Shown: piece after piece, positions 2,750 through 55,600 of the stretch
How the letters are laid out: each line of letters begins with the position of its first letter
How positions within the stretch are numbered: the stretch's first letter is position 1
From: Amphiscolops sp. MND2022
Taxonomy: Eukaryota
Direction of reading: 5' to 3'
DNA: 64,000 bases
Assembly (NCBI GenBank): GCA_964187785.1
Contig: OZ076409.1
Coordinates: 73,596,001-73,660,000, forward strand
The notes under the pieces: model-generated
Told to the model about the DNA's origin: nothing
Databases searched by the model: none
The model's input: only the letters and a program-made list of their open reading frames with translations
Position numbers and translations under genes: made by a program

Positions 2750-2949
2750 TGTTATGAAAACGAAAAATAGTGGAATTTCGTTTCCTCCTTTCTCTTGATA
2801 TTTTTCCTTCAAGTCAATTTGTCAAAAGGAAGACATTTGTTCAACTGAGTTATCTGAATCCTGTCCAGAGGTGTCACCCGGACGAATACCATTTCAAGCT
2901 GAAGTACACAAATCAGGGTAGTATTAGACATCACAAACTCCTACCAACT

Positions 2950-2995
2950 CCCACCGTCTGTGGGCATGCCGAGGCATGCCCTTCGACGACGTATG
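2950..2995 (+). other. Conserved 3'-subterminal palindromic box (example copy; present in 27 of 37 unit ends)
   Basis: CCCACCGTCYGTGGGCATGCCGAGGCATGCCCTTCGACGACGT, with a perfect 9-bp stem GGGCATGCC-GA-GGCATGCCC (2962-2981). In the copies measured it ends 39-55 nt before the unit end. Confidence 0.85.
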
Positions 2996-36000: not shown

Positions 36001-38149
36001 ATTTTTCTAACGGTCCAGCTTATCTTTGCCATTTTTTCGAAAATGCACTCGCCTAAAGGCCTCCCCTGGCCGGTTTTATTCCCAGCAAAACCATTTGGCC
36101 CTAAATACGGAGTTTCAGCGTTCCAGCATTCCCGGGCGAAAAGTTGTGGGACTTAGAAAATTTCAAAAATTTTCAAAAATTTTTTTTCCGTTATTTGGGC
36201 CCCCAAAGTGGGGGAAAAGACCCCCCAACCAGTAAAGCAAGTGAATGCATGTGCAAAGCCCTTGTTTAGAGGAGAAAAATGCCGTTTAGAACGTCTTTTT
36301 ATCTTGGCTCAACGTTGACTTATGACGTTTTGAAGGTGATGTTTGGAGGTGTAAATCACGTGAATAGTAAACGTTATGAGTATTTATCTGATCTGAAAGC
36401 CATTGAGATGCAATATGGTTTGCTCAAAACGTAATTCATGGCAGTTTGGCAATCAATCAACACCCTTTGTTGTCGTTTGACATACTTTTTTGTTGTTATA
36501 ATAAAAATTTTGTGTATTTGTTCATTTTTTTCTCATCAAATAACTTGAAACAGTTGAGTACATTCCATCCCCCCTTCCGGGGGAGATGAGAATGTACTCG
36601 CAAAAAGCAGCGAATTACGGCCCTTACCTTCCCGAGCTACGCAGTATAAGGATTACATATTGGTTCCGACATTTTCATAGAGTTAAATCTTGGTAATCTG
36701 TCTGGATATGCAGAAAAATCAGCACGTGCCTTTTAATACCAAGTTGCTCACAACGACAATTATTTTATATCAACGCCCCCATATTTATCAACGCCCCCCG
36801 TCCGTGGGCATGCCGAGGCATGCCCTTCGACGACGTATACCAAGATATACATCGAGCGCGTTAGCCTAGGTGGTCCGGTACACTACCAACAAAACATTGT
36901 CGCGAGCAACGGGGAGGGTCCTGTAGCGAGCTTTATAGGAAAAAAACGGCGGAGCATATATACTAGGCAACATCGGCACTTTTACCCACGATCTCTGAAA
37001 TGAACCATACGATCCGGCTCAAAATTTGCATACGGCTTCCTCTAGCGATTCTAAGAACTTTTCCCTACTGGCATTTTGCCCGGAAAATTCAAAAAGTGGG
37101 TCAAAATCTTAGTTTTTTGGTCGAAAAATGGCGTTTTTTTGGAAAAAAATTTTTTAAGAGCCCATATCTCGCTCCCAGGTGCTCGGAGCGGGTCGCATGT
37201 GGACGTTGATATTGCTGGGCACTTCTTAAGGAGTCCGTAGACAAATTTTCGTACAGATCGGATGAAAATTGACTGAGTAATAGCCGCAAATCCGACGAAT
37301 TTTTCAGAAAATTTTGGTACACCTAGTCTATCTCTGCAGTTTTTTGCCCAGATTTTTTTCCAGGACCTCTCCTAAAGGCCTCCCCTGGCCGGTTTACCTC
37401 CCAGAAAAACCATTTGGCCCTTTTGCCGCAGTTTCAGCGTTCCAGGATTCCCCGGGTAAAAGATAAATGACTTAGAATTTTTTCGAAAATTTTTCAAAAT
37501 TTTTTTTTTCAACTTCAGGCCCCCCAAAGTCAAGAAACTTCCACACAACTAGTATTACAAGTGAATGCATGTGGAAAGTGCTCGAATAGACGAGAAAAAT
37601 GAGCTATTATAAAGTTCTGTAGCTTAACCTGACGTTGACTTATGACAATTTTAGTGTGAGCTTGCTATGTGAGAAAAAATTTCATAAATTGAAAATCGAA
37701 GCTAAGTCTCATCGGAATACGTTCAGTGGACCCCAGCGCTGTTTAAATGCCGCTGTTTAGTGCAGCAACGCCCTTTAAGGTCATTTGATTCATTTTTTAC
37801 AGGTTTTGACACCGTCTTATCCATTCGAAAGTTCGAAAGAGTTGTGTACATTCCATCTCCCCCCTTCTATGGGGGAGATGGTAATGTACACGCAAAAAGC
37901 CAAGTACTACTGTTCTTTTTATACTTGGAGTGGCCTCGGCAATGCAGTAGCGGGAGCTCCAGGTCGTTTGCCGTAGCCTTATTGTCTGTTTAGACTTTGC
38001 TACAACAGAAACTATGTTACTGAACATGAAAAAGATTGTTTCAATCCAAATGTTTTTTCAAATAATAATACCAAATAACACATGTCCATATATCCACTAT
38101 TGCCACTAAATACTGGCGCATCGTCGCACAACGAAGCCTGCAGCGCTAG
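33006..38149 (+). mobile_element. Four units: K 33006-34267, L 34268-35583, H 35584-36869, F-type 36870-38149
   Basis: K body matches 57861-59120 and L matches 55264-56579. Each unit is delimited by CTAG|GTG. Confidence 0.85.
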
Positions 38150-39240
38150 GTGCCCTAATCCATCGATTTGCTCAACACTTCGAGGGCAGGGTAGGGCCCC
38201 TTGCCCGAGCCAAAAAGTCGGATACTTACGACAGACAACTTAAGGCGATTGGGACAGTCTGACCCCGATCTTCTAAACGAGCCTATCGATTTGGCTCAAA
38301 TTTTGCATGCGGCTTCCTCTAGCGATTCTAAGAACTTTTCCCTACTACCATTTTGCCCGGAAAATTTTTTTTGTTGACTTATAGACAATTTTAGGTGCCG
38401 AAAATGGCGTTTTTTTGAAAAATTTTTTTTTAAGAGCCCATATCTCGCTCCCAGGTGCTCGGAGCGGGTCGCATGTGGACGTCGATATTGCTGGGCACTT
38501 CGTAAGGAGTCCGTAGACAAATTTTGGTACAGATCGGATTAACATGGACTGAGTAATAGCCGAAATTCGGACGCATTTTGTCGACATTTTTCGAAAACCT
38601 AGTCTATCTCTGCCGTTTTTTGCCCAGATTTTTTTCCAGGACCTCTCCTAAAGACCTCCCCTGGCCGGTTTACCTCCCAGAAAAACCATTTGGCCCTTTT
38701 GCCGCAGTTTCAGCGTTCCAGGATTCCCCGGGTAAAAGTAAAATGTCTTAGAATTTTTTCGAAAAATTTTCAAAAAAATTTTTCAACTTCAGACCATCCA
38801 AAGTCAGGAAACTTCCACACAACTAGTATTGCAAGTGGATGCATGTGGAAAGTGCTCGAATAGACGAGAAAAATGAGCTATTATAAATCTCTGTAGCTTA
38901 ACCTGACGTTGACTTATGACAATTTTAGTATAGGTAGTTTTTAACTTCACTGTACCTCAACTTACTTTTTTTTCTTTTTCCAGGTGTCGGAGTTAATTTT
39001 TTCTGCATACAGGTAGTATTTGGTAACAGGTGACGTCTAGTAAGTTGGTGGTGATTTGGTAAGCAGCGAATGGTGTTTAAATGTATGTCCAGTTTAACTT
39101 AATCTTTGTCATGAACTGGTTCCTCTCTCTGGTGATGTCTAACAAAACAGCGTTTTTTAAGATTTGCTTTGATTTGCTTTGATCTGCTTTGCCAACATTA
39201 ACTTGTTTTGCTGGGCAATCAAAGAGGCTAAAAGTCTACA

Positions 39241-42200
39241 ATGCCACGAGGCCGAGGAAGAGGTAGAAGCGCTATTGCGAGGAGGAGATGCCCTGTACAC
39301 AGTTACTATCTTGGAAGTGATGGAGTTTGTTCGAGATGTCAAGAGAGTGAGCGAGTTCAACAACAACAACAAGATGATGCCGAACAAGATGTAGCAGCAG
39401 TCAATGTCCCCATTCCCCCATATTCCCCCAACGACGTACAGATGACGGAGACGGAGAGTTGTGCTAAGTGCTGCAGGACTAGCACCGAAAGATACAATCT
39501 AAACTTCCAGACTTTACACAGAGACTCTTTACATAGGACTATGTTTGGTAAACCGGTGGCGGAGATGACCGGCGAAACAATCACAATGTGCCAACTCTGT
39601 ACTGACTACAACAATAACATCAATCGACACAAAGACTGGGCCAATGCATGGCCAAGCGTTATGTATACTTTTTTATTTGACACTCATAGGTTCAACTCTA
39701 ACGCTGAAAAACTGTATAAACTACTACCTAATGAACTTAAAGAGTCCTATAAACAAAACATGAACACTGTTCATCCCTCGTTAGCGACTACTATTACTGA
39801 ATCTGTATTTAGGGATATAACTCACGAAAAGGAAGACTTTTGGACTCTAATTAATACTAAAACTGCTAAAACCTTAGTAAAAGCTCTGACTGTTCATTGC
39901 TTTCCCAACATCAGGTGTCCTGCAGGGTGTTTCGAATTTGTTGAGAAAAGTAGTGATATTTCTTTTGCCCATTTCCTCAACTGGCTCTATCCTTCTTTTA
40001 CAAGTTTTAATGCAAATAGTAGGAAATTTTTGAAGGGAGCGAGAGAAGATTTTTTGAAACCTTTTACTCTTCTGGAAAAGTTCAACGTGTCACCATGTGT
40101 AATTACTAATGAAAAAGGGTTAGGGTTGGTTACTTGCTCAGACCATAAAAACGGTGTTTTGTTAAACTATGTGCATATTCCAACAAATCCAGTTGCGGGA
40201 AACATAAGTCCAAGAAATGTCGACAGGTTAGCGTTGATGGTTTCCAGCGTTAGAACAGTAAGACCATTGAAAATAGGAGTAAAAAGTGCGACTTTCACTA
40301 TGTGTCGAGTTGATAGTGGACGCATCAGTGGCGTTAGCTCGACTGTCCTTCACAAGTTCAGGAACTTTGAACCTCCTTATCCCGACCTTCATCAAGACAT
40401 TGAAAGACTTATGATTAATTGTAGGAGTGATGTTAAGGAAATAATTAGAACATGTTGTCAAAATCAAGAAATCAGTGCACGTTTAGCTGAGGAATTTTTA
40501 TCATTCGAGGCTCCTGTTTCGTTTTCACTTATCGAAGAATTTTGTAAAAACGCTGTAGTCTTCAATATGAGATCTCTAATGGGCATGAAAGACTATGTAG
40601 AAACTTGTCCAGACGACGTAACTCTTCGCGATGATTTCAAGAAACCTCTAGTATATGGTCATAAATTGGACGGCTATGGTTCCGAACCATCAGTGTTCCC
40701 GAAAGGTTTTTCACAAGAAGACAGTTTGTTTGTTTTTTCGCATGCACTTTTAATCACTGATTCATTATGGTCTAAACTATGTCGACTTTGCGATGAAAAT
40801 GTCCACATTTTGGAAATTTGTAAAACTTTGTATCGCCTCAACGTCAGAAAAACTCAGATAAAAAAACACTACACAAATTCATCACTCATAAATGGCATGC
40901 GCAATGCATTCACTGAACTTTTTCCGTCTCAGATGGACCCTTTAGTTTCTCTTTGTGAAACCTTAGAAGGTTGTCAAGTCGTCAATTGTGCTCGAGGGTC
41001 TGTAGATAATGTAACTATCGATTGTGCCAGAAATGACTTACTTTTAGTTGTGGCCACTGAGTCGCAAGGCAGAGACACTCAAATTCCTTTCAATTTAACA
41101 TCGGCAAACGGAAAAGACTTCCAACTGATTTTCTTATCTACTGAAGGTAAAGTAAGTGTGAGACACGGTGATCCTTTTTTTAATTTTTGGACAATCATCA
41201 ATGACGGAAGCAGAGCTGTAAAAGACCCAACCTTAGAATTTCAATATAACAGAACATGGAAATTTTTAATCTACGTTTCGAAATCTGATTTCAACGAGGA
41301 AACTAAACTGCGTTACCTAAAATACATGGGAGGTCAAGGTATTTTTTTCTGTAGTGAACACAACTTGCCACTGTCAACTGATTACTTTAAGTCTAACAGA
41401 AAATGCAGTCTACCTAAAAACAATAGTGAAAATGTAACATGTACAAGAAAATCTGCTTGGCGTTGTCCCGAAAAAGATTGCTTTGCGTCGGTTTGTAAGA
41501 CTCATTTCCGCGAGTATTCTGACGCCGTCGATAAGGTTTTGGTCGACAATACGCCTTCAAATGAGGCCATCCAGGATAGCAGCGACGATGAGCCAACTTT
41601 TGAAGATGAGGAAGCAGAACAGCAGCCTGATGACAACTTGCCAGGACCCAGCTTCGTGCTGGAACAACCCCAAAGAAATGAAACTTCAGAAGCAAACATG
41701 GATGAATTTGACTGCCCTCAGCTGATAGTTGATGCCGGGTTCCAAGAAACGGATGCTTTTGCCACGGACTCTGGCTGTGAGCCCGTGTACTTGTCAAATG
41801 ATTCTAAGTTTGTGCCAATGCATGTACTTCTGAATGGCGAATGCCAACTTTTAAAACGGTTAAGGTATCCAAAACATGTAGGTAAAAAATTTCAGCGATT
41901 TTTCCAAAATTTCATTTCCACTCTGCCGGGTCGATCGATACCACTCCTGCAGCCTGAGGCATGCTTATTTCCTAGCATTTTCTTTAAACAATTAGAGGAT
42001 TGTTCTTTCCCTGGTGCTCTGCCTTTTTTTCTCTATGACGACAGAAATGCCAATTCTAAATTTGATTTCGATGGTCTGCACGAGCACATGCGTCTAAGAC
42101 TAAAAGATAGCACCTTATTAACATCATCAAATTTGAGCTACATCATGTATGCATTCGACAGTGTTTTAAATTTATCGCTAACAAAATGTCATACCAACCA

Positions 42201-45200
42201 GTTCTTTAAACGTGGATTGCAAACAATTACAATAGGTAAGTATAAACCTCAGCAACTAACATCAACTGAGTCTGTACTTAAAATGGATAGCGTCGACAGC
42301 GACGTTCATGTAAATCGCCTAGGAACTGCTTGTGCGTCTGAAACACCAGACCTTTTTGTAACATTCACTTGCAACCAAAAAGAACATCCAGGGGTTGCTG
42401 AAGTAGTTAACGCTATCTACGAACTGTACGGCAGCGCGACCACCGAAGAACTAAAAGAAGTGCTCCAGGCTTACATGGTCATCATTGTAAGATGCTGGAC
42501 TAGGACTATTGAACTTTTAATAGATTACTTGAGGTTTTCAGACGAACAAATTTTGGGTGAAATTATCAAAGTTTGGGGTAGGGCAGAATTTCAAAGTGCA
42601 GCAGCCAACCTACAACACTATCACATTCTTTTTTGGTTAAAAAATTCGACACAGGACATCATCGAGAAAATTCAATGTGCACACAAACACGTCCTCCATG
42701 AGTTTAAAAAGTTGTTTCAAATGAATTTCGGAACTGTTGATAGTGAGGAGCATGCAGGTAAGTTATTTGACGATTGTATCCGCGTTCAAAGTCATGATTG
42801 TGAGAAAGGGCACTGTCTTAAAAAAGTAAGGTTGAACGGCGAGCGAAAGTGTCGTTTCCCGCCCTATCCTCAAAGTAACGTTCCCTGGTACAAAAAATTC
42901 CACCAGCCACATTCGGAAGAAGCCCTAGTAGCATTACAGGAAATTGATTTGGCTGAACCGAGGCCTGGTTTTGATAATTCTTTGCAGGTTACAACAACTC
43001 TTATGGCAGGTAAGTACATGTATGCGGCCACCAGAGGAGAGCACATGTCACCGCTGAATGTTGCCCTCTGGAGTATTTGTAAATCCAGTTTGAACGTTTT
43101 GAAGGTTTGCAAGTCGGTTGCATCCAGGTACTTGACATCGTACGCTGCTGGAAAAGAAGAGCATGCTGATGTGGCCATCAATCCAGAAAACTCTCACAAT
43201 GTATTAAATGTTCAGGTTCAGAAAATTGAAAACAAAAAGTTAGGAGGTGTTAGAAAGATCCTTGCTCGAGAGGCTAAGCAGGATAAAACGCAAGGTATCA
43301 TTGATTCTACCACCATTGCAAGTACAGAATGTGTGTCATGGATGTTACAATTACCAACTGTAATAACAACCATGGACTTTGTTTCAGTCCCCACCGTAGC
43401 TTTAGAAAATCGGGGAGGTGTAATTTTAAAAAGGAAAAATAATACTTGTTCAAGATCAAATATACCAGGTGTGGCCAACGAAGGCCCATGTGAGATCAGG
43501 GAACATCATTTGAGGTTACCACGTCATCGACTTTTTACTAGGAGCCAGAAAATAGTTCTAGAAAGTGTGAACAAAACGCCATTTAGTACTGATAAAGTAA
43601 CTGTTTTTTCTCTACGTCCTCCTGAATTGCTTTTTGTAAACAAACTAAGACCCTACTTCAGGTGGTTTAAACGCGAAAAATTGTCCGGTAAAAGGGAGAC
43701 TGCCAGTGTACGATTTTTGAAAAACGACGTTAGGGAATCAACTTGGGTAGATGGCGAAAATTATGCCATTCGTTTAAGACCTTCTGCAGTTTCCGAATTT
43801 TCAGCTTTCGTCCAGGAATCTTTAGCGGCAAATCCAACCGATAGTAGACTGCTCGATGCCTTCGTTATAATTTCGGAAGTTTTGACTATTTCCTCACATC
43901 CAGGACGGTCGCTTTTTGTATCCAGTGACCCAAATTTGTCAAATACACCAGCAGAGGTGGTTTTTTCAAAAGTGTATCCCCGCAATCCTGCAAACTTTTT
44001 AATTCATTTTTTACTATCTAATGCTGCTTTCGAAACTGAATTTGAACTTTTTGATGTGCCAACTTTGAAGGATGCATACGTGAAGGGCAGGGTTGTACCA
44101 GACAAACAAGTATACGATGAAAATGATGTCAATGAACTTTTGAAAAAATATGTACTTGAGCAATTGCGATACCTACCAGGTGGTACGCGTTCTTTTGATA
44201 ACAATCTACTTGCGGCAAAGTCAGCATTCAAGGGAATGTTAATAGATAATGACATTTATAATGAAGGGCTGCCCATTACAAAGATGGATACCTTGACTGA
44301 AGCATTGGAAGATAAGGCTAAAAAGATGCTTCGGCAGTCCCAGTTAAACATCATAAAATCTTTAACTCAGAAAAATTTGCCCAATTTTCCTAATTCTAGC
44401 GTTTTTGAAAATGTGTCCAAGGAAACACCATCTGACTGGTCTGGTGAACTTGTTCCAAACAATTTTCAGACTGAAGAGTCTCGTGAAGAACAGACCATAA
44501 TTTTAGAACAACTGAAAGAACTAATTTGTGAAAATCTGTTTTCTGACCATAAATTTAGGAAACACCAGTTGATTTTGGGTCCACCAGGTACAGGTAAGAC
44601 GTATGTGTTGACGATGGCTTTGGGTTATGCGCTCACGAAAGGGTTGTTTTGTCTTGTAACTAGTTTAGCATCCCGAAGATCGATGCACTTTGGCGGTGAG
44701 CACATTCACAAATTGTTTTGCTTGCCTCCTTCTTCTTGTGGATCACCGATCAAAATGGCCGAGCAAGCTCTCGTGAAACTGGACCACCGGAATGACAAGA
44801 AGATGCTGTTAATGGCCCTGGAAGTACTGTTCGTGGAAGAAGTGAGCCTAATCAGTGCTGAACAGTGGTCTGCCATGGACCTCACCCTTCAAGAGTTGAA
44901 GCAGTCAACCTTGCCTTTCGGTGGGGTTTTAGTGATCGCGAGTGGTGATCAGATGCAACTGCCATCAATTGAAGGGAACGACATCTTCCTCAGTCCTGTT
45001 CTACTGACAAACTTCGCAATGTTCTTTTTGTCGCACTTTGTTCGAATGACAGATGCAGACGGTCAAACTGTACTTCGACACATGTGGAAACGTCCCATAA
45101 ATGCCCCTGCTGTCGCTGAAATACTCGCGATTCTGGACACTAAGTGCACATTCAAGGACAGCTGGGATGACTTGGACGACCCTTGTGTAATGCGTGTTTT

Positions 45201-46359
45201 TGGCAAGCGGAAAGCTGAACAGAGAGAATTCGATAGCCACATTCAGCGAGTACGCGCGTCGGGATCGTCCTACCGCATTTTCGAAGCCAAGGATGAGATC
45301 TGTCTTTCGAAGAGCTCAGTTTGGAATGAGACTGACTCTCGGCAAGTAAGTAACCATCTGAGCGACAAGGTAAACGAGCCCAAACAGTTAATTGTTTACT
45401 CAAAGGCTTTGGTAAGGGTCACAGTGAATCTGGAAGCTGAGCAATTGTCTCAAGGTCAGGTTGGTGTAGTTCACGAGGTTCCCACTGGTGACTCGGTCAC
45501 AATCTACGTCCCAGATAGCAGTGGTGGGGAAGTTGATATCACTCCTGGGATGTTGGAACGCGAGGAGTACCTGACTTGGCGGACTGTGACTCTCTCAAAG
45601 CACACCGGCTTCGTTCAGCCTTTCAAGAAGAACTCAGTGCGAAGGGTTCAGTTACCGCTCATGAACTTTGTTGCCATGACAACGCACAAACTCATGGGTG
45701 ACACATTTGAAAAGTTGGCGACGTCCATTTCCGCAACCGACAGTAGCTACGCTTTGTGGATGACGTCGCAAGTTTTTGTAATTGTCAGTCGTGTCAAACA
45801 ATTAAAAAACCTTACTTTTGTTGGTAACAAAAATGCTACTTTAAGTGCCATCGAATCTATTTTTGAAAAGAGAGACTTGAGAGAGGAACGTCTCTTCAAT
45901 TTGCTAGACAAAATAAAAAACAACTCGAGGTGCAATTCCAATGTTCAGCCAATCAACATTTCGAAGTTATCTTACGTACCTTTTAACAAAAACATCCCAA
46001 GCACTCCGAATGGCTTCGTATATCTTTTGATTAGTCTGAACCCGACTTCGCCCGAAACTTTTTACGTAGGAGAAACTGAGCGCGCGCTGTTAACACGGTT
46101 GTCGGAACACAACTGCGGCAACGGTTCAGATTTCACGAGAATCCCCCACCGTTTGCCCTGGGCAGTCGCTGCTTTTGTTTGCAATTTTTCATCACGTTTT
46201 TCACGCAAAGACTTCGAAAAAGAAATACATCGAGAAATGTGTGTTCGTCATAACAATTTGAAAAATTTAAAAGACATGCTATCTCTTTTCCAGGAAAAAG
46301 TTAACGAAAAAAACTGTAATCTTCATTTTTGTGTTTGCGGTGAAATGCAGTCGACATAA
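39241..46359 (+). CDS. Helitron-type RepHel transposase (HUH/Y2 Rep + Pif1-family SF1B helicase) with N-terminal Cys/His clusters and C-terminal GIY-YIG endonuclease
   Basis: 2372-aa uninterrupted ORF. Rep motif 1 PDLFVTFTCN (~42346), motif 2 GRAEFQSAAANLQHYHILFW (HYH 42616-42624), QSHDC..HC..KCRFP, motif 3 YLTSY (43129/43141). Helicase: GPPGTGKT (44578-44601), VEEVSLIS, PFGGVLVIASGDQMQLPSI, QLPLMNFVAMTTHKLMGDT, QVFVIVSRVK. GIY-YIG: GFVYLL..FYVGET.R.L..RL.EH..G.GS.FT (from ~46012), with a candidate catalytic Glu in KDFEKEI. Confidence 0.92.
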   Translation: MPRGRGRGRSAIARRRCPVHSYYLGSDGVCSRCQESERVQQQQQDDAEQDVAAVNVPIPPYSPNDVQMTETESCAKCCRTSTERYNLNFQTLHRDSLHRTMFGKPVAEMTGETITMCQLCTDYNNNINRHKDWANAWPSVMYTFLFDTHRFNSNAEKLYKLLPNELKESYKQNMNTVHPSLATTITESVFRDITHEKEDFWTLINTKTAKTLVKALTVHCFPNIRCPAGCFEFVEKSSDISFAHFLNWLYPSFTSFNANSRKFLKGAREDFLKPFTLLEKFNVSPCVITNEKGLGLVTCSDHKNGVLLNYVHIPTNPVAGNISPRNVDRLALMVSSVRTVRPLKIGVKSATFTMCRVDSGRISGVSSTVLHKFRNFEPPYPDLHQDIERLMINCRSDVKEIIRTCCQNQEISARLAEEFLSFEAPVSFSLIEEFCKNAVVFNMRSLMGMKDYVETCPDDVTLRDDFKKPLVYGHKLDGYGSEPSVFPKGFSQEDSLFVFSHALLITDSLWSKLCRLCDENVHILEICKTLYRLNVRKTQIKKHYTNSSLINGMRNAFTELFPSQMDPLVSLCETLEGCQVVNCARGSVDNVTIDCARNDLLLVVATESQGRDTQIPFNLTSANGKDFQLIFLSTEGKVSVRHGDPFFNFWTIINDGSRAVKDPTLEFQYNRTWKFLIYVSKSDFNEETKLRYLKYMGGQGIFFCSEHNLPLSTDYFKSNRKCSLPKNNSENVTCTRKSAWRCPEKDCFASVCKTHFREYSDAVDKVLVDNTPSNEAIQDSSDDEPTFEDEEAEQQPDDNLPGPSFVLEQPQRNETSEANMDEFDCPQLIVDAGFQETDAFATDSGCEPVYLSNDSKFVPMHVLLNGECQLLKRLRYPKHVGKKFQRFFQNFISTLPGRSIPLLQPEACLFPSIFFKQLEDCSFPGALPFFLYDDRNANSKFDFDGLHEHMRLRLKDSTLLTSSNLSYIMYAFDSVLNLSLTKCHTNQFFKRGLQTITIGKYKPQQLTSTESVLKMDSVDSDVHVNRLGTACASETPDLFVTFTCNQKEHPGVAEVVNAIYELYGSATTEELKEVLQAYMVIIVRCWTRTIELLIDYLRFSDEQILGEIIKVWGRAEFQSAAANLQHYHILFWLKNSTQDIIEKIQCAHKHVLHEFKKLFQMNFGTVDSEEHAGKLFDDCIRVQSHDCEKGHCLKKVRLNGERKCRFPPYPQSNVPWYKKFHQPHSEEALVALQEIDLAEPRPGFDNSLQVTTTLMAGKYMYAATRGEHMSPLNVALWSICKSSLNVLKVCKSVASRYLTSYAAGKEEHADVAINPENSHNVLNVQVQKIENKKLGGVRKILAREAKQDKTQGIIDSTTIASTECVSWMLQLPTVITTMDFVSVPTVALENRGGVILKRKNNTCSRSNIPGVANEGPCEIREHHLRLPRHRLFTRSQKIVLESVNKTPFSTDKVTVFSLRPPELLFVNKLRPYFRWFKREKLSGKRETASVRFLKNDVRESTWVDGENYAIRLRPSAVSEFSAFVQESLAANPTDSRLLDAFVIISEVLTISSHPGRSLFVSSDPNLSNTPAEVVFSKVYPRNPANFLIHFLLSNAAFETEFELFDVPTLKDAYVKGRVVPDKQVYDENDVNELLKKYVLEQLRYLPGGTRSFDNNLLAAKSAFKGMLIDNDIYNEGLPITKMDTLTEALEDKAKKMLRQSQLNIIKSLTQKNLPNFPNSSVFENVSKETPSDWSGELVPNNFQTEESREEQTIILEQLKELICENLFSDHKFRKHQLILGPPGTGKTYVLTMALGYALTKGLFCLVTSLASRRSMHFGGEHIHKLFCLPPSSCGSPIKMAEQALVKLDHRNDKKMLLMALEVLFVEEVSLISAEQWSAMDLTLQELKQSTLPFGGVLVIASGDQMQLPSIEGNDIFLSPVLLTNFAMFFLSHFVRMTDADGQTVLRHMWKRPINAPAVAEILAILDTKCTFKDSWDDLDDPCVMRVFGKRKAEQREFDSHIQRVRASGSSYRIFEAKDEICLSKSSVWNETDSRQVSNHLSDKVNEPKQLIVYSKALVRVTVNLEAEQLSQGQVGVVHEVPTGDSVTIYVPDSSGGEVDITPGMLEREEYLTWRTVTLSKHTGFVQPFKKNSVRRVQLPLMNFVAMTTHKLMGDTFEKLATSISATDSSYALWMTSQVFVIVSRVKQLKNLTFVGNKNATLSAIESIFEKRDLREERLFNLLDKIKNNSRCNSNVQPINISKLSYVPFNKNIPSTPNGFVYLLISLNPTSPETFYVGETERALLTRLSEHNCGNGSDFTRIPHRLPWAVAAFVCNFSSRFSRKDFEKEIHREMCVRHNNLKNLKDMLSLFQEKVNEKNCNLHFCVCGEMQST

Positions 46360-47178
46360 AAATATAACATTTAAAACGCTTTGTTTTTGGCACGAGTTTT
46401 CTTAAATGTGTTTGTTGGAATCGACGATGAGCGTGGTTCCAGGTAGGTTTAAATTAGGTTGGTTTGCTGGAATCGACGATGAGCGTGGTTCCGGAAATGA
46501 TCAATCAGAATAAAAAAATTTCATTGAGGTTTTGAAACATCATGTAACTTCGAGGTATGTTGCCCTTTTGAGCCATCTGCCTCTTAAAACTAGAACTTGA
46601 AGTAACCTTCATTCTATTTTTCAAGTGTATCCTTGTGTGTTGCCCTTTTGAGCCATCCGCAATGATACACTTCTTTTTTTGAAAATGGAGGTTAACCTGG
46701 TAAAAATGACAGCGATCCAGTTGAAGAAGAAGACGATGAAGAACGATGTCGCGGACAGCAGACGATGGTGCAGCTGAAGCAGAGCAGATGATGACGATCT
46801 AGAAGCAAGACCCCAGTGTAAAAGCTTGTGTAGCCCTTTTGAGCCTTCCAAGCTTATACACTAAATATAAAAATGAAAGTCTTAACAAATATAACCAGTG
46901 TGGCAGCACGTGTAGCCTTTCTGAGCCTTCCGTGCTGAGACACTCTCCTTAATAAAAATAGGTCGAGAAATTCTAAAATCGGAATTATTAGACCAAAACA
47001 TGACTTCCCTAAAACTGACTTTTTTCTACTTCGGACTTTTTGACTAAAAGACTCCAAGACTGAGACTTAATTGACTTTTTTCTAAAACCTAACCGTCCTT
47101 TTTCCTTACGTAGTGAGAATGAGTGGAGTTGAGCATTGAGACGTTTTTGGATACATTCAAACTAGTGTTTATACCAGA

Positions 47179-48060
47179 GCGTCCAGATGAAGAAGAAAGA
47201 AGATTCGGAAGATGAGAATAAATAATATGTATAATAGTAATATTTATAGTAGTTGCGTCCAGATGAAGAAGAAAGAAGATTCGGAAGATGAGAATAATTA
47301 ATATGTATAATAGTAATATTTATAGTAGTTGCGTCCAGATGAAGAAGAAAGAAGATTCGGAAGATGAGAGTAATTGATATTTATAATAGTAATATTTATA
47401 GTAGGTGCGTCCAGATGAAGAAGAAAGAAGATTCGGAAGTAGAGAATAAATAATATTTATGATAGTAATATTTATAGTAGGTGCGTCCAGATGAAGAAGA
47501 AAGAAGATTCGGAAGTAGAGAATAAATAATATTTATAATAGTAATATTCATAGTAGGTGCGTCCAGATGAAGAAGAAAGAAGATTCGGAAGTAGAGAATA
47601 AATAATATTTATAATAGTAATATTTATAGTAGGGGCGTCCAGATGAAGAAGAAAGAAGATTCGGAAGTAGAGAATAAATAATATTTATAATAGTAATATT
47701 TATAGTAGCTGCGTCCAGATGAAGAAGAAAGAAGATTCGGAAGATGAGAGTAATTGATATTTATAATAGTAATATTTATAGTAGGTATGTCCAGATGAAG
47801 AAGAAAGAAGATTCGGAAGTAGAGAATAAATAATATGTATAATAGTAATATTTATAGTCGCTGCGTCCAGATGAAGAAGAAAGAAGATTCGGAAGATGAG
47901 AATATATAATATGTAATGTAGTAATATTTATAATAGAGCCTCCAGAAGAAGAAAGAAGAAAAGAAGATTCAGAAGATGAGAATATTTAATATCTATTGTA
48001 GTAGTATTTATAATAGAGCGTCCAGAAGAAGAAAGAAGAAAAGAAGAAGACGGTCCAGAA
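47179..48060. repeat. 76-bp minisatellite, 10 copies plus 2 degenerate copies, inside the autonomous element
   Basis: GCGTCCAGATGAAGAAGAAAGAAGATTCGGAAG...TAATATTTATAGTAG recurs at 47179, 47255, 47331, 47407 ... 47863, then degenerates at ~47939 and ~48018. Confidence 0.95.
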
Positions 48061-48242
48061 CACGAAAGGAATATTTGGGAAAAGATTTTAATAACTATGA
48101 CTTGTTTTTGTACTTCACTTTTTTGAAAGGCTGTAGGTTCAGAATAGGCTGTAGTGATTAGGTTGTATAAATTTCACTGTTGGGCATGACCGCTGCAAAT
48201 CACTGGGAGCCTTAACCGATAGTACTCGTTTTGTAGATCAAA

Positions 48243-48890
48243 ATGAACACTACAAGTCTCGTGATAGTTGGTGCCAGTAATCTTGTCTACAACAAAAAGC
48301 CTCTCGTTGCCTGCAATTGTGAAACATTCGAATGCCACAGAAAAGATGAACATCTAACAAACATACCCCCAGATGCAAACTTCACGATAATTGCTCGTCC
48401 AGGAGCTAAATTTGGTCACAAAAATCAAGATAAGTGCGCCGAAAATTTATTCAAAAAAGCTCTTGCTTTGAGTCCAAGAACAATAGTTTTCTATATGGAC
48501 ATTTTGATGAACAGTGTCACAAGTCCCCCTTGGCAACCTAATTCGCCTGTGTTAACACCTGAAAAAGTTCTCAGAAAGTTGTTCACGTTAGAAAGAAAAG
48601 CCAACGCTAAAGATTGCAATTTTGTTTTAGTTTTGTGCCGGCGCAAAAGATCCGACAGACAGAAACTACCACCGTCTACTTCCCGGCATCCTGGCGAGCA
48701 ACCGAGAGAAATTTACGATATTGATAACGAAATGAATAGTCTTTTGAAGCAAAATTTTTTCAATTATGTCGATCTCAAACTGTCTAATGCATCATTCAAG
48801 GTTAACGATGAGGCGCACCAGACTCAAGTTTCAAAAAATTTGTCCCTTGGGCGAATCATTCGCTACTTCACACGAACAAATGATGATTGA
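48243..48890 (+). CDS. SGNH/GDSL-hydrolase-fold protein (transposon-associated esterase-like)
   Basis: 215 aa. Block I-like VIVGASN (cf. GDS), block II-like ARPGAK, block III-like ILMNS, block V DEAH (DxxH) near the C-terminus. ATG lies in AAAATG just after a TTTTGTAG acceptor-like site. Confidence 0.65.
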   Translation: MNTTSLVIVGASNLVYNKKPLVACNCETFECHRKDEHLTNIPPDANFTIIARPGAKFGHKNQDKCAENLFKKALALSPRTIVFYMDILMNSVTSPPWQPNSPVLTPEKVLRKLFTLERKANAKDCNFVLVLCRRKRSDRQKLPPSTSRHPGEQPREIYDIDNEMNSLLKQNFFNYVDLKLSNASFKVNDEAHQTQVSKNLSLGRIIRYFTRTNDD

Positions 48891-49109
48891 TATTTTCTGC
48901 TTTGTCAGTTTAAGCGCTTTAGCGTCTTAAACTGACCCTTTTTCCTCTCTCTTTTCTTCTTTTCCGCCTTTTTCTTTTTAATAGGGTTCTGGCGACGTGG
49001 AAGAGAAGGAGAGGAAACCTGGCCTGCTTGCAGGATTGCCAGCTGTCTTCGCGGAAATTGTTGTGCCTGTCTACGTCCTTGCCGCAACTTGGACCCGAAG
49101 CAGCTGTCT

Positions 49110-49400
49110 CACAAATCAAAAACAAAGAAATTCCAAAAAAATCAAAACTTCAAAAAACCCAAAAAAAAAAACAAAAAAACCAATAAAACCAAAAAAACTA
49201 AAACAAAAATTTAACCAAAACCCCAAAAAAAACAAAAACTCAAATTCAGAAAAAAGCACAAACAAACGAAAAACCAGAAAACTTTAAGACAAAACTCGAA
49301 AACATATCTTACCAAAAGTGAAATCTCAAAAATCCTAAAACCTTGAAAAGTAGAGCAAAACTTTCCAAAAAATCCTTACAACTTAAAAACTATAAAACTT
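49110..49400. repeat. A-rich low-complexity tract
   Basis: Runs of A punctuated by C between the SGNH ORF and the third ORF. Confidence 0.8.
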
Positions 49401-49971
49401 TCCTGTTTTCCAACTTTTTTATTTTGCACTCTGTCTAAAGAGATTAATAACACTTTTAGTCTTTATGTAACGATTCCAATTTTGTTTGTGAAGTAAATAC
49501 TGTCAATTAAAATTTTTTCGTTAAAAAGTCTTTTGACATTAAAAAAAACTATTTTCGAGTATTTTTTCCTTGGAATCCTACTTTCTAAAATTCACATCTT
49601 TGCTTAAGCTTCTTCATACCCTGCATTTCATTTACTGTTTGAGGATTCCAATATGAATTTTTTTTGCCCATTCCGAACTCAGCAGATACATGTCTTAATT
49701 TTCATTGAAGTTTGCATTTGTTCAATGCCTTTTGTTTTTTGAGCACCTTCAAAACTCTCAAATACATGCGAAAAAACGTTTTTAGTAGAGAAAAAATTGA
49801 AAAAAATCCTAACGAGATGTCCTGTGGAGAAGATTCCAGCACTGTTTGTGTATCAACAGTTCGGTAATGGGTCTACAATGAAATTTAGGTTAACCTCCAT
49901 TCTGTATTCGTATGGTCTTTTATTCTTGGAATGTGAAAACTAAAATTTTTGGTTGCTTTTCCAGATTCAAA

Positions 49972-51003
49972 ATGCCCGGTTTTCTCAAAGCCACTCTTAC
50001 TGTTCCTCAAGCTGTCGATTTAACATCAAAATTTACTGCCATAAGTGTTGACAGCCTACTTAGTCCAGATGCCACAACGCCTCGTTTGTCAAAAATTTCC
50101 CTGAAATTTGTTTATATTGCGCAGCCACAGAAGAAATTGGTCTTTTCCAAATTCAGCAAAGCTTTTAACCAGGCGAGAAAGTTGGAAATGGAGCGATACC
50201 ACAGGTACATTGTGCTAGGGGTGCCTGGTACACCCACCGTCCTAACAATGTTCACGCAGACTAGCGAAGAAACCAGGAGGCTGCTTCGGTACCAAAAAGA
50301 GATTAGACCTGGTTCGGAAGTGGTCGTGTTGAAACCAAACCTGGAAGGAACATTAGCGGGGGGATCCACTCCCTTGATAACAACAAGGGAACCCCTTATC
50401 CCAGTTACTGCCAATAACCTCATTTGCCTTCCACCTTACGATGTCGAGGGAACATCGCTTGAGTACAAATTTTTTTCTTTCGTTACGAAGGGACTGCATG
50501 TTGACTCAGTAGTTATCGCTGAAAATGTATGCGATGGAACGCTCTGCGACGGGCATACATTCCATGAGCCATGCGGCTGTGTAGAGGCTTCTACAAAAAA
50601 GACATGGGGCTTATTGATTGAATTTAGATGCCCCGAATTCCATGGTTTGGACGAAAACATTAGCCTGTATTCGGTCCAAATTGCATCCGTATTCCTCACA
50701 AATGAGGTTAGAACCTATAAGGCCGACAGTGATAGAATCGATCGATTCGATTTGGACGAACAAGCTCAAAAGATTGTGGACGCGATTAACCAGGTGCAAG
50801 GGTTCAGGATAGAAGGCTGGTTCAAGCCGGCCGCAGATGACGAGGGAACTGCCCTTGGAAATAAACGGTATCATGTTTCTCTACTAACTCCCGATAAAGA
50901 ACTTACTACAGAACAAGCGGCCCTGAAGTACAACGGGGTTACTGACTCTTCTCCTTCTACATCTGCTCCAACTTTAGCGGTTGCCGCGTCTCCGTCTGCC
51001 TGA
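49972..51003 (+). CDS. Uncharacterised element-encoded protein with Cys cluster (CDGTLCDGHTFHEPCGC); possibly OB-fold/RPA-like ssDNA-binding protein
   Basis: The open frame runs 49912-51003. The likely start is the ATG at 49972, after TTTTCCAG|ATTCAAA. The sequence looks beta-rich with a Zn-ribbon-like insertion. The OB-fold call is an inference by analogy to RPA70-like genes of some Helitrons. Confidence 0.6.
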   Translation: MPGFLKATLTVPQAVDLTSKFTAISVDSLLSPDATTPRLSKISLKFVYIAQPQKKLVFSKFSKAFNQARKLEMERYHRYIVLGVPGTPTVLTMFTQTSEETRRLLRYQKEIRPGSEVVVLKPNLEGTLAGGSTPLITTREPLIPVTANNLICLPPYDVEGTSLEYKFFSFVTKGLHVDSVVIAENVCDGTLCDGHTFHEPCGCVEASTKKTWGLLIEFRCPEFHGLDENISLYSVQIASVFLTNEVRTYKADSDRIDRFDLDEQAQKIVDAINQVQGFRIEGWFKPAADDEGTALGNKRYHVSLLTPDKELTTEQAALKYNGVTDSSPSTSAPTLAVAASPSA

Positions 51004-51611
51004 ACCACCGGAACCCTTCGTCATCAGCAAAAAAACTGGCATAACTCCATCCGGTAGTTGAAATTTGTCAAAGCAACCTGATGACAGAACAACCCAAGCG
51101 CTGTTGCGGTTGAGTGGCTTGTCGCCCTTTTGAGCCGTCAGTCACTCTCCGCAATTGAACTTAAACATTTTATTTCTGTTAAAATCATTACCTTGTTTTC
51201 TGCAGAAAAAAAGCAAAATAAAACCGAAAAATTATGGGAAGAAATGAAATCAATTTATTGTTTTAATCCCGCAGGATTTTTTTACTCGACAGACTTCAGG
51301 TACTTTTTTTCAACGGGCATCTTTATTCTTAAGGTAATTAAGTAGATTCTAAAATTTGAAGACATGTACTCTGATTACATCAGCCTCATTTGGTGGAATC
51401 GACGATAAGCGTGGTTCCAGGTTTGCGTAATTTGAATTCAAGTATAATAATGTAACGACAACTCTTCCACACTCTTGCACATCATTAACCACTCATTAAC
51501 CTTTCAACCGACACCCGACTGACGACTCTTCTCCAATCACGTAAGTAACTACTTTCATATTTTTAACACTCTCCTGCCTACTGGAATCTTCGTTTTGCCG
51601 TACACGTCTAG

Positions 51612-52681
51612 GTGGAATTGGGTTATGACAAACTCATTTTTCGAGGTTGGGGTAGGGCCCACAACCGAGCCCTAATTTCATTTGCTACTGTACCGAAACC
51701 CCCCCTGAAAAATCACGATCTTTTAAATGAGCCCTACGATTTCGATGAAACTTTGCATGAGGCAAGAAAAAAAAATTCTAAGAATTTTTTCTTGCTGACA
51801 CTTTTTCGAAAAAACGGTCCTTAATGGTTTTTTTGGCACTTTTTTGTTGAAATTTAGTGCATTTTGTGCATTATTCGTGAGTAACGTGAATAAAAATGAA
51901 TGTGCTCAGAATTGGACCATATTATATGTGAATACTCAGCACAGTTATGCGATTTCATTTTCATGTCGCGGCACGTCGCTCCGACTCTCGAGAGTTAGTT
52001 ATGACAGGATGAAAAAATACAAATGAGTGCCAAAAAAACGAGTTAGGAAATTTTTTTTAAAATTATGTTTTCGAACAAAAATGTGAATAATTTTTTTTCA
52101 CATGACAAAAAAAAGTACGAAAAAAAGTACGAAAACAAGTACGAGAAAAAGTACGAAAAAAAAGGATAATTTTTTTTTGAAAAAAAAACAATTTTTTGGA
52201 ATATTTTTTTCACCGTACAGGACCTAATTAGTACCGTAGAATTCATTTTATGCCTTGCCCAGTTGCCCTTCTATTGTTTTGTAGCGCTGACAACTTATTT
52301 GAGGTTTGTGTAGCAAAGTATGTTCAGCAAAGTTTAAAGGGAGGAACCATATAGTTTATTTTAAGTCAACTGTATTATATTTCACACTGCTGTTAACCAA
52401 AATTAACTCTTGCGGTCGTCTCATGGTCCCGGAGTGGTCCATGAGACAGACGCAATGGCAAAACACAAAGGTCCAAGTGATGATTAGTCGTAGTGTCACA
52501 TGTGATCCTGCATGTGACGGCTGTATATAGGTTGGAGCTGTTTTTCTTTTTCGAAACTTTCGCATTGGCAATATGTCTTTTAATGTCTTAGTTGCGATGT
52601 TATTACCTTCATCGAGTACGTTCTCCTAACACTCTTAACCCAACTCGCTAGACTAATGGCAGTGGACGGACACGAGTCTAG
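51612..52681 (+). mobile_element. Divergent singleton 1.07-kb unit M
   Basis: GTGG start, hairpin GGTTGGGG-TAGGG-CCCACAACC at +41, ends GAGTCTAG. Lacks the long hairpin and the 3' box. Contains 4x ~12-bp AAAAAAGTACGA near 52110-52156. Confidence 0.7.
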
Positions 52682-55600
52682 GTGCCGGGATTTCTATTCG
52701 TTCGAGTAAGTGGCGCGTGTGGGTAGGGCCCCTGGCGCGCTCTTGTGTTTCGGGTTTTCCTACTCCTAAACCGCGTTCAGATTTTCGGGATCTCGTAAAC
52801 TAGCCATACGATTTGGCTGAAATTTGGCACACGTACCCCCCTCGGCACGGTGAAGATGATTCCCTACTGACGTTTTGCCCGCTAAACATTTTTTGTTGAC
52901 CAAAATAACGGTTTTTGGTGGAAAATTTTCAACTTTTTTTAAATTTCATCTTATATCTCGCCCCAGGTTTACGCTAGCGCTTCAGAACCTTGCTGACGAA
53001 AGTTTGCAAACTGTCTCAGGAATGCGGTGTGAAATTTTCAGCTCAATCGGACGTAAACTCGAGGAGATATAGCGTTTTTCCGGAGCGGGGGGGTTTCATT
53101 TTTCTAACGGTCCAGCTTATCTTTGCCATTTTTTCGAAAATGCACTCGCCTAAAGGCCTCCCCTGGCCGGTTTTATTCCCAGCAAAACCATTTGGCCCTA
53201 AATACGGAGTTTCAGCGTTCCAGCATTCCCGGGCGAAAAGTTGTGGGACTTAGAAAATTTCAAAAAATTTCAAAAATTTTTTTTTCCGTTATTTGGGCCC
53301 CCAAAGTGGGGGAAAAGACCCCCCAACCAGTAGAGCAAGTGAATGCATGTGCAAAGCCCTTGTTTAGAGGAGAAAAATGCCGTTTAGAATGTCTTTTTAT
53401 CTTAACTTGACATTGACTTTTGTCGTTTTGAAGGTGACCGTTAGATACAGAAAATTGATATTTTGAGTATTTATCCCATCTGAAAGCCATTGAGATACAA
53501 CATGTTTTGCTCAAAACGTGTTTCATTGCAGTTCCGCTGTCCATTGACACCCTTTGATGTCTTTTGACGTAATTTTCTTTTCTATAATAACAATTTTTTC
53601 GTGTATTTATTCATTTTTTCCTCATCAAATAACTTGAAACAGTTGAGTACATTCCATCTCCCTTCCCGGGGGAGATGAGAATGTACTCGCTAAAGGTCAG
53701 GAACTACGGTCTATATCTTCCACAACACAAAAGCAATTGAAAATTGTTTCAGTTTGTCGCAGAAAACTTTTCTTTTTGCACTCAGTGACTCGGCAAAGTG
53801 AACGATTTTGACCCATATTGAATCTTACTTTACCACAACTCATCTCTAACGTCAACGCCCCCCACACACATCAACGCCCCCCGTCCGTGGGCATGCCGAG
53901 GCATGCCCTTCGACGACGTATAACAAAATATATTCGAACGCGGTAGCCGCTAGGTGCCGGGATTTCTATTCGATAAAGTATTTTGCGCGGTTGGGTAGGG
54001 CCCCGTGAGCGCGCCAGGGGATAGTGTTAGAACAACCGGAAATTCGGCATACGATTTTGGCGATTTTCTAAACTATCCATACGATTTGGCTCAAATTTGG
54101 CATACGGGTTCCTGAGACAGATATAAGAACTAATTCCTACTGGCGTTTTTCCCGGAAAATTTTTTTTGTTGCCCAAAATTGAAATTTTCGGCAAAAAAAT
54201 GCGATTTTTTTTGAAAAAATTTTTTTGAGAGGCCATATCTTTTTTCAGGGTGCCCGGAGCGGGACGCGTTAAACTGATTATAAACTCTACGGTTCATGGG
54301 CTTTCCGGAGAACCTAGGCTCGTTTCGCTCGGACGAATAGTCTTGGAGATATAACGGGATTTTTCGGGAATTTTTTGAAAATTTTTCTAACGGTCCAGCT
54401 TATCTTTGCCATTTTTTCAAAAATGCACTCGCCTAAAGGCCTCCCCTGGCCGGTTTTATTCCCAGCAAAACCATTTGGCCCTAAATACGGAGTTTCAGCG
54501 TTCCAGCATTCCCGGGCGAAAAGTTGTGGGACTTAGAAAAATTTCAAAATTTTTCAAAAAATTTTTTTCCGTTTTCCGCCCTCCCCCCCGAGGGGAAAAG
54601 ACCCCCCAACCAGTAATTTGAGTGAATTCATGTGGAAAGGCCATGTTTAGAGGAGAAAAATGCCGTTTAGATCGTCTTTTTATTTTAACCTGTCGTTGAC
54701 TTATGTTGTTTTGAAGGTGATGTTTGGATGTGTGAAGCATGTGAAAAGGTAATTTATTGTGTCTTTAGCTCTTCTAAAAGCCATTGAGATACAAGGTGTA
54801 GCACTCAGAACGTGTTTAATTCTAAATTAGCAATGCATCAACACTTTTTGTGTCTTTGGACTCTGTTAAAAAATTTTTCCGACTAAAATCAAAAATTATT
54901 TATAATTATTCACATTTTTTTCTGATCTCATGACTCGAAACAGTTGAGTACATTCCATCTCCCTTCCCGGGGGAGATGAGAATGTACTCTCTAAAGACCA
55001 GGTACTACAGTACTTACCTTCCCCGAGCAACGCCCCATAAAAATTGCGTTTTGATCATTCTATTTTGACATAATTCTATCTTTGTAATTTGACTGGAAAT
55101 GAAGAAAATCCGCACGTGCTCTTTTATATCAAGTATCTTAACAACGCCATCTCTTTAACGTCAACGCCCCATAGTTCACATCAACGCCCACCGTCCGTGG
55201 GCATGCCGAGGCATGCCCTTCGACGACGTATGCCAAAGATATACCCCAAGCGCGTTAGCCTAGGTGCCCGGATTTCTATTCATTAAAGTATGTTGCGCGT
55301 GTGGGTAGGGCCCCTGGCGCGCTCTTGTGTCCCTGTTCTCATAACTGCAATTTCCGGCAGCATTCTGAGCGATTTTCTAAACTATCCATACGATTCGGCT
55401 GAAATTTGGCATGTGAGTTCCTATGACAGTTCTAAGAAACATTTCCTACTGGCGTTTTGCCCGGAAAATTTTTTTTGTTGACTTATAACGGTTTTTTTGG
55501 CCAAAAAATGCGATTTTTTCAAAAAAAATTTTTTTCGGAGCCCATATCTTTTTTCAGGGTGCCCGGAGCGGGACGCGTTAAACTGATTATAAACTCTACG

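Follow-up and report, generated by a model that had tools for sequence, protein, structure and literature searches.

The window, that is, the whole stretch of 64,000 nucleotides analysed here, contains an uninterrupted ORF predicted to encode a Helitron-type transposase composed of a HUH/two-tyrosine Rep, a Pif1 helicase and, at the C-terminus, an intact GIY-YIG domain of the SLX1 type. We give an even chance to the reading in which the GIY-YIG domain is an accessory structure-selective nuclease that would trim a flap or branch behind the helicase during rolling-circle transposition. The ORF and its domains are:

39241..46359, forward strand: RepHel-GIY-YIG ORF, 2,372 aa counted from the first Met, uninterrupted.
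42616..43143, forward strand: Rep domain motifs, HUH (HYH, residues 1129-1131) and two-tyrosine (Y1300, Y1304); Pfam Helitron_like_N, E 1.2e-9.
44554..45876, forward strand: Pif1-family SF1B helicase; Pfam PIF1, E 3e-11, and fold.
46003..46356, forward strand: SLX1-type GIY-YIG domain; Pfam, profile, fold and active-site alignment.

Translation from the ATG at 39241 to the stop ending at 46359 revealed zero stops and zero frameshifts. The HUH Y2 Rep and, downstream of it, the Pif1 helicase are carried by one protein, the arrangement by which the Helitron-like superfamily is recognised, as found using Pfam, motif alignment and helicase fold. Via a family profile, the Rep motifs correspond to residues 593-595 and Y727/Y731 of Helraiser (7lcc), the sub-domain matches being weak, and the Rep region, searched against PDB as a single sequence, returned nothing relevant. 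Walker A of the helicase is located at 44578-44601 and motif VI at 45784-45804, and the predicted model matches Pif1 in fold at Z 33.3 and Helraiser at Z 25.7.

The GIY-YIG motifs are all in frame with the helicase, namely GFVYLLISL at 46012-46038, FYVGETER at 46060-46083, RLSEHN at 46096-46113, PW, and FEKEI at 46213-46227. A first-pass annotation of this DNA had recognised an in-frame GIY-YIG domain at the C-terminus from its pattern of two Tyr, Arg, His and Glu, and both points hold, with the correction that the start it gave, 45990, is two bases out of frame and 45988 is in frame. PF01541 matches residues 2261-2333, scoring 27.5 bits when the whole protein is searched and 32.8 bits with the domain alone, above the curated cut-off of 22.6 bits, and searches of NCBIfam and PHROGs found no match for the GIY-YIG of the window. 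The predicted active site consists of Y2264 (46021), Y2278 (46063), R2289 (46096), H2293 (46108) and E2329 (46216), which align with Tyr17, Tyr29, Arg39, His43 and Glu82 of SLX1 (PMC8287910), so that 5/5 are present. In SLX1, these five residues are required to cut Holliday-junction and 5′-flap DNA (PMC8287910).

A profile and fold check of the C-terminal residues, proposed at first pass, gave clear matches. Among solved structures the tail matched SLX1 (E 1e-12), HIGLE (E 1e-11) and UPF0213 (E 1.6e-4) by profile; SLX1 and its plant relative were the best solved matches (E 1e-12 to 3e-9), and no GIY-YIG nucleases other than SLX1, HIGLE and UPF0213 were found among the best 60. An AlphaFold2 model of the helicase and tail has a mean pLDDT of 92.7 and a pTM of 0.89, and its final 118 residues (484-601 of the model) can be superimposed on At-HIGLE 7wme (Z 11.5, rmsd 2.9, 111 aligned), Slx1 6seh (Z 10.8, rmsd 2.2, 103 aligned) and 7cq2 (Z 9.9, rmsd 3.0, 106 aligned). 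By profile and modelled fold, as distinct from a domain tree, the tail is nearer to SLX1 and HIGLE than to other solved GIY-YIG nucleases. The likeness to SLX1, At-HIGLE and UPF0213 is one of fold and of the five active-site residues, whereas here the predicted nuclease is fused to a transposase; no RING domain was seen, and there is no known SLX4-like partner. According to PMC8287910, fungal SLX1 is inactive without SLX4, and that neither a partner nor a RING domain was seen here is an observation against the accessory-nuclease reading.

Helitrons readily capture genes (PMC11417382), and the fusion could in principle be accidental, arising from read-through into a nested element or a captured gene, or from an error of assembly. 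However, the stop-free stretch of ∼168 codons past the helicase has a chance of ∼2e-5 from base composition, and the fusion is present in 17 of 19 family proteins, the window's own counted (the other two stop earlier). A search for RepHel+GIY-YIG architectures, also suggested at first pass, aligned it in 136 of the best 150 50%-identity clusters (533 matches, E<=1e-30; ENA, JGI, Logan and NCBI sources), a proportion biased upward because the search profile included the GIY-YIG and the best 150 of the 533 matches were considered. Read-through or artefact was ruled out on these counts, and its probability is negligible. Judged from the sequences, the fusion is ancient.

Among the 131 clusters spanning the active site (from the best 150 of 533), 101 keep all five residues, and many of these share <35% identity with the query, a pattern that suggests selection on catalysis. 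A further 29 lack the Arg or Glu and retain the domain, still holding a downstream Asn (100%) and Pro (97%). As the live or dead state also changes 11 times on a FastTree helicase tree (a quick, unsupported tree), the predicted nuclease activity would be dispensable in several lineages. Retention of the domain in the 29 clusters, and the whole-fragment pTM of 0.89, which suggests fixed packing on the helicase, are what would be expected of a domain whose main task is binding to branched DNA or capping of the helicase, with cutting incidental. We consider this unlikely, as preservation of five residues in 101/131 deeply diverged clusters is unlikely to be needed for binding alone.

The ORF lies within a putative autonomous element set in a train of smaller units:

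1637..38146, forward strand: left arm of the train, comprising 26 non-autonomous units (1.26-2.2 kb) from several subfamilies.
38147..51611, forward strand: putative autonomous rolling-circle element, ∼13.46 kb, bounded by CTAG|GTG junctions as are the array units.
38147..38929, forward strand: 5′ segment common to family-A non-autonomous units; globally 85-91% identical to the heads of seven of them.
46417..46492, forward strand: 24-nt stem-loop motif, two copies directly past the ORF; shuffle test.
47179..48040, no strand assigned: 76-bp minisatellite, 11.3 copies, within the element.
48243..48890, forward strand: cargo ORF, 215 aa, likely GDSL/SGNH hydrolase-like; Atlas feature score 0.94.
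49894..51003, forward strand: cargo ORF, possibly an OB-fold ssDNA-binding protein (a lead only); Atlas 0.86-0.88.
51609..64000, forward strand: right arm of the train, with 9 complete units (1.07-1.32 kb) and a further one truncated where the window ends.

The bounding junctions of the element are at 38146-38153 and 51608-51615, and its 3′ end, CCGTACACGTCTAG, is common to family-A units. The 5′ boundary would be at 38147. Homology of the 5′ segment to family A ends abruptly at 38929, and the element may alternatively start near 38930 as an insertion into a family-A unit; an orphaned remainder of a unit split at 38930 is absent from the window. A third copy of the 24-nt motif is found at 51395-51418, ∼190 nt from the 3′ end of the element; there were 3 matches to the motif versus 0 in 100 shuffles, with z values of -1.6 and -2.8 indicating a modest hairpin. 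The assignment of the 215-aa product draws on Lipase_GDSL_2, found in 21-46% of top-cluster members, the ORF itself having no Pfam match. The Atlas scores of the second cargo ORF are to POT1, CTC1 and MEIOB clusters and fall under the 0.9 level, and it too has no Pfam match. Neither cargo ORF matched NCBIfam or PHROGs, and an Rfam search gave no match.

The array is composed of shuffled head-to-tail non-autonomous relatives joined at CTAG|GTG. The T, G, G, T and G positions do not vary over the 37 junctions, 36 of which also have the C before them; the 3′ terminus is CTAG or CTGG at 36/37 and GTG follows the YTRG end at 37/37. We infer the precise cut position inside CTAGGTG. Units abut directly with no target-site duplication, as read from the junctions alone, and the autonomous copy and family A share their 5′ and 3′ ends. 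Four internal TTAGGTGC sites are not junctions, which rules out that the 8-mer by itself suffices as a target. In one unit type 27 sites have a hairpin in front of them, and the autonomous 3′ end has none. Inverted matches of at least 7 nt between head and tail are lacking in 25 of 36 units, and the 11 short matches found are at inconsistent positions; HLE2-type ends were ruled out by this analysis.

Unit identities range from 48 to 99% and their order is shuffled, which rules out a simple homogenised satellite. Only 6 of 33 adjacent pairs are at least 90% identical, ruling out one rolling-circle concatemer, and since the nearest relative adjoins a unit in only 4 of 35 cases, separate insertions fit better. 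On the other side, part of the array clearly expanded by segmental duplication (a 5-kb stretch at 94%).

If the element behaves like Helraiser, Rep would nick the plus strand at the element 5′ end, the helicase would peel the strand off, and joining of the ends would give a circle with a CTAG|GTG junction. Because the chromosomal junction has the same sequence as the circle junction, Rep could re-use it as a target, producing a shuffled head-to-tail train in which the GIY-YIG need not read sequence. From SLX1 biochemistry, the nuclease might then cut the displaced-strand flap or the branched strand-transfer product, leaving host repair to finish. Helraiser transposes without an extra nuclease, so such a step is not generally required. 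In nuclease-dead families the step may be carried out by host SLX1 or another flap nuclease, or by sister elements acting in trans. Complementation of dead families in trans could mask an essential role.

Of what the first-pass annotation had suggested for the domain, resolution of branched intermediates would fit membership of the SLX1 lineage, and junction targeting was left unsupported. A targeting nuclease would nick the target or second strand at CTAG|GTG and so build the array, and the element does sit within an array with extremely precise junctions, Helentrons have an endonuclease at the same position (PMC6431247), and several families have members with identical longest-contig sizes, suggesting clustering. 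However, the nearest relatives are structure-selective and not sequence-specific. The array junction joins the 3′ end of the element to its 5′ end, and PMC5876387 describes precise in vitro cutting of its own end-to-end junction by the Helraiser transposase, which has no GIY-YIG, such that Rep by itself can cut a junction of this kind, and reports head-to-tail Helitron arrays in plants and bats. Dead families are also intact and multicopy, as in P0014, which lost both Arg and Glu and in which 6 full-length members were checked; Arg or Glu is lacking in 29/131 clusters. A targeting role is therefore improbable.

Two autonomous families, P0008 and P0024, have recombined to give the ORF of the window, the crossover falling within the Rep region. 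Per 100-residue block, identity to P0008 is 72-100% over residues 1-1100 (>=94% in 9 of 11 blocks), and residues 1201-2300 are 97-100% identical to P0024. Several non-autonomous units are likewise mosaic-like, and GIY-YIG domains elsewhere serve as homing endonucleases (PMC12774661). The nuclease might accordingly nick resident elements or stalled intermediates, leading to inter-family recombination or conversion in a homing-like or conflict role. However, mosaics are explained without a nuclease by template switching, or by the ectopic recombination that is ordinary among arrayed repeats, and no sequence-recognition module was seen beside the domain, making this role distinctly unlikely.

In a helicase tree with plasmid Pif1-type helicases as the outgroup, the proteins with the fusion form a long-stemmed clade (support 100/100), and HLE1 helicases form a separate clade (100/100). 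The clade groups with two HLE2-like rows at 80/85, though only 3 such rows, all long branches and labelled via motif and Pfam instead of a curated set, inform this placement. A little short of even chances is given to the proposal that these elements are an unnamed major Helitron-like lineage beside HLE1, HLE2 and the Paramecium clade, with a fused SLX1-type nuclease, its own Rep signature and well over 100 deeply diverged families, and that in this host it inserts into its own end-to-end junction, generating trains of mixed transposons that can be mistaken for satellite DNA. An ascidian member is the GIY-intact Styela clava copy XP_039257388.1, and some relatives (P0016, P0018) carry an OTU domain. 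Helitron_like_N was matched in only 6 of 19 full-length members, and with weak or no score against this standard Rep profile the lineage is probably under-annotated. No clade member was among the matches listed in a metagenome scan, which supplied one HLE2-like locus (L001) kept as a reference. Viral-contig scans gave short Walker-A matches or nothing, the plasmid scan gave Pif1-type helicases only, and the Rep-motif pattern had 2 matches in prokaryotic genomes, both chance. The fusion marks a large, little-described branch of rolling-circle transposons, and a transposon with an exact junction target would be of interest for targeted insertion and for the origin of satellite-like arrays.

Canonical Helitrons (HLE1, Helraiser 7lcc) share the HUH/two-tyrosine Rep, Pif1 helicase and head-to-tail junctions with this element, and also the CTRR 3′ end if the cut lies where it is placed here. 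The subterminal hairpin of HLE1 has a likeness in one unit family, but not at the autonomous 3′ end, which lacks a terminal hairpin. HLE1 elements have a 5′-TC terminus and A|T target, whereas here GTG follows at all 37 junctions, and the Rep signature is E[FY]QxxxGNL[PS]HxH in place of EFQKRGLPHAH. PF01541 was matched in 0 of 120 HLE1 homologues among the matches listed. Paramecium Helitrons, a third clade (PMC13085455) compared here by description only, are similar in being a divergent lineage outside HLE1 and HLE2 with long ORFs, internal satellites, strong orientation and target bias and many non-autonomous copies. However, they insert at telomeric repeats and have CCAA ends, and GIY is unmentioned in the main text and 7 searchable supplements of PMC13085455.

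Among Helitron-like elements, the literature searched holds one earlier mention of GIY-YIG, for HelenSM92 from Sphagnum magellanicum (HELIANO, PMC11417382), which is said to have captured the domain; whether it is fused, and its position, are unstated in the text and legend. HelenSM92 is described as an HLE2 element that has short terminal inverted repeats and inserts at TT, and may or may not belong to the GIY clade. A parallel in architecture is with Helentrons (HLE2 subgroup b), which carry an AP endonuclease after the helicase (PMC6431247). As the first-pass annotation had noted, the GIY-YIG occupies that same position, and here an SLX1-type domain running up to the stop codon replaces the AP endonuclease; Exo_endo_phos had no Pfam match in P0001 or 19 relatives. 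The ends also differ: they read CTRG-3′ and 5′-GTG, they lack consistent subterminal inverted repeats, and a TT target was not seen. What the AP endonuclease does in Helitron transposases has yet to be settled (PMC8788227), and the intact ORF, named predicted catalytic residues and natural dead variants described here make the question of the extra nuclease directly testable. Finding an unrelated nuclease in the place of the AP endonuclease suggests that some processing step is repeatedly needed once the helicase has acted.

The window contains three ORFs of at least 150 aa (standard code). The longest encodes RepHel, the Rep and helicase transposase, and lies within the putative autonomous rolling-circle element listed below.

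Features of the RepHel unit
38147 to 51611, + strand: RepHel unit as bounded by junctions, ending with CTAG at 51608-51611
39232-46359, + strand: longest ORF (ORF scan), stop to stop, first Met at 39241
ORF residues 1036-1133: Helitron_like_N (Pfam, E 1.2e-9)
ORF residues 1780-1913: PIF1 (Pfam, E 3e-11)
ORF residues 2261-2333: GIY-YIG (Pfam, 27.5 bits against a cut-off of 22.6)
48243-48890: cargo ORF, likely GDSL/SGNH hydrolase-like
49894-51003: cargo ORF with a Cys-rich patch, product possibly OB-fold ssDNA-binding (atlas scores <0.9)
46417 and 46469 (directly past the transposase stop) and 51395 (near the 3′ end): a 24-nt stem-loop present three times, which may represent former or alternative terminators

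The in-frame GIY-YIG fusion at the C-terminus of RepHel proposed in the first-pass annotation is borne out by a Pfam match above cut-off in the same ORF. Every GIY-YIG motif quoted there was found in frame, and only the domain start was misplaced, being 2 bases out of frame. The fusion is genuine, and it is both intact and conserved. Two families contributed to the ORF by recombination, P0008 the N-terminal part and P0024/P0003 the C-terminal part, with a crossover near residues 1100-1200, within the Rep domain.

Searched alone against PDB, the domain gave only weak matches to UPF0213 or SLX1 proteins (5 sequences, E 0.018-0.58), and a 69-sequence profile matched SLX1 (E 1e-12), At-HIGLE (1e-11) and UPF0213 (1.6e-4). 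The C-terminal 601 residues were modelled with AlphaFold2 (pLDDT 92.7, pTM 0.89); model residues 1-456 matched the fold of Pif1 helicases and Helraiser, and model residues 484-601 the GIY-YIG fold (At-HIGLE Z 11.5, 6seh Z 10.8, 7cq2 Z 9.9). Helicases occupied all 40 rows among the Foldseek matches listed for this model. By alignment and spacing, Y2264, Y2278, R2289, H2293 and E2329 are the counterparts of the five residues found in PMC8287910 to be essential in yeast SLX1. The domain is SLX1-like and is usually intact within the clade of GIY-YIG-bearing transposases.

When ORF residues 1750-2375 were used as query, the 20 proteins listed comprised 19 from the window's family (including its own) and one from a canonical Helitron (HLE1); GIY-YIG is present in 17 of the 19 listed family proteins, the other two stop before the domain, and Arg is lost in three. 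A six-sequence helicase plus GIY profile, run against 1.84 billion representatives, gave 533 matches at E<=1e-30. Recurrence of the fusion, a matter the first reading left to database searches, is evident among the best 150 of these 533, where the N-terminal half of GIY-YIG aligns in 136, a count biased toward fusions because the profile contained GIY-YIG. The remaining 14 of the 150 end no more than ~30 residues past the match, and none has a different domain after it. All five active-site columns are covered in 131 of the best 150 of 533, with YYRHE in 101, Arg or Glu absent in 29 and another change in one. An independent Pfam scan of 19 chosen full-length members found GIY-YIG in 17, with 16 passing the cut-off, and gave no match to an AP endonuclease; in a control PF01541 was absent from the precomputed domains of all 120 HLE1 homologues listed of 5,848 found. 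Among 29 proteins looked up, one is assigned to a named host: Styela clava XP_039257388.1, a clade member with an intact active site.

Five clusters (P0101, P0102, P0103, P0105 and P0239) end right past helicase motif VI at an almost identical position, possibly reflecting a shared intron ahead of GIY-YIG or true loss in one sub-lineage. C-terminal to GIY-YIG, P0130 carries a fused Ulp1/C48 protease (Pfam) and P0123 an OTU-like tail (judged by eye).

Retention or loss of the catalytic Arg and Glu changes state 11 times on a FastTree topology without support values, and the activity residues appear to have been lost several times. One family shows identical Arg and Glu loss in all 6 full-length members checked; the longest contigs of its members agree in length with those of families retaining both residues, so complementation in trans by the latter is possible. 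A binding or structural role for GIY-YIG is considered unlikely, and a recombination-promoting role slightly less likely still.

Clade members have in common a Rep motif, E[FY]Qx(3-6)GNx[PS]HxH, and a tyrosine motif, Y..[KS]Y, which the family profile aligns to the Helraiser HUH and Y727/Y731 through weak sub-domain matches (i-E 100 and 0.0048). HLE1 and HLE2 (Helitron2/Helentron) labels were assigned here from canonical motifs and from Pfam, with DUF6570 taken to mark HLE2 following PMC11417382. The helicase tree was built from 390 columns and 38 rows, namely 21 from the clade, 10 HLE1, 3 HLE2-like and 4 bacterial Pif1, 12 of 50 prepared rows having been removed by hand; P0138 had no Walker-A match. 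A long branch sets the clade apart (100/100), and HLE1 is likewise separate (100/100); the 3 HLE2-like rows form long branches of uncertain placement. The clade is thus distinct from HLE1 but is not separated from HLE2 by this tree. It is possibly a whole unnamed Helitron-like lineage. A 1,990-aa HLE2-like RepHel on a 9.4-kb metagenome contig (L001 677-6649) served as reference.

Nearly the entire window (1637-64000) consists of non-autonomous rolling-circle-type units of 1.07-2.2 kb, all on one strand and arranged as a shuffled train, which would pass as a 1.3-kb satellite in annotation. The first 783 bp and the last 14 nt of the RepHel unit also occur in family-A units, its non-autonomous relatives; the RepHel unit carries a minisatellite and the two cargo ORFs. 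The family-A homology ends at 38929/38930, where the sequence resembles a junction (TTTTAGT followed by ATAGGTAG). This point marks either a 5′ end of chimeric origin or an insertion for which the downstream half of the target is not within the window. Unique segments occur within array units at 26262-27782 (1.5 kb), which has no ATG ORF >65 aa, and 14785-14977 (0.2 kb). Of the 35 complete non-autonomous units, 4 have their best match next to them, and 6 of 33 adjacent pairs are >=90% identical; near-identical units are separated by up to 45 kb, and a stretch of 5 kb arose by segmental duplication (94%).

The consensus of 37 junctions (35 exact TAGGTG and 2 CTGGGTG variants picked by eye) is YTRG|GTGS, with 5 invariant positions, and all 41 matches to the junction 8-mer are on the plus strand, 4 of them internal to units. 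PMC5876387 describes the Helraiser transposase as making and precisely cutting RTS-to-LTS junctions via the plus strand. By analogy, a circle formed by the present element would be closed at CTAG|GTG, the very sequence that joins units in the array, and therefore Rep could take resident CTAG|GTG junctions as targets, which would explain the train without GIY-YIG. The role in junction targeting first suggested for GIY-YIG is accordingly not supported, as re-use of junctions by Rep would suffice, and a targeting nuclease seems improbable. The best-fitting reading, to which we give roughly even chances, is that GIY-YIG would work behind the helicase as an accessory flap or branch nuclease.

In the papers searched, the one direct precedent found for a Helitron GIY-YIG is HelenSM92, a Sphagnum HLE2 family reported in HELIANO (PMC11417382 and preprint) to have captured this domain. 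Neither the HELIANO text nor its supplement legend speaks of a fusion; the captured-domain account (sections 22-23 of PMC11417382) does not name GIY-YIG and mentions at least four unclassified clusters. A third clade, from Paramecium, is described in PMC13085455 as telomere-targeting, and the text and supplements searched make no mention of GIY.
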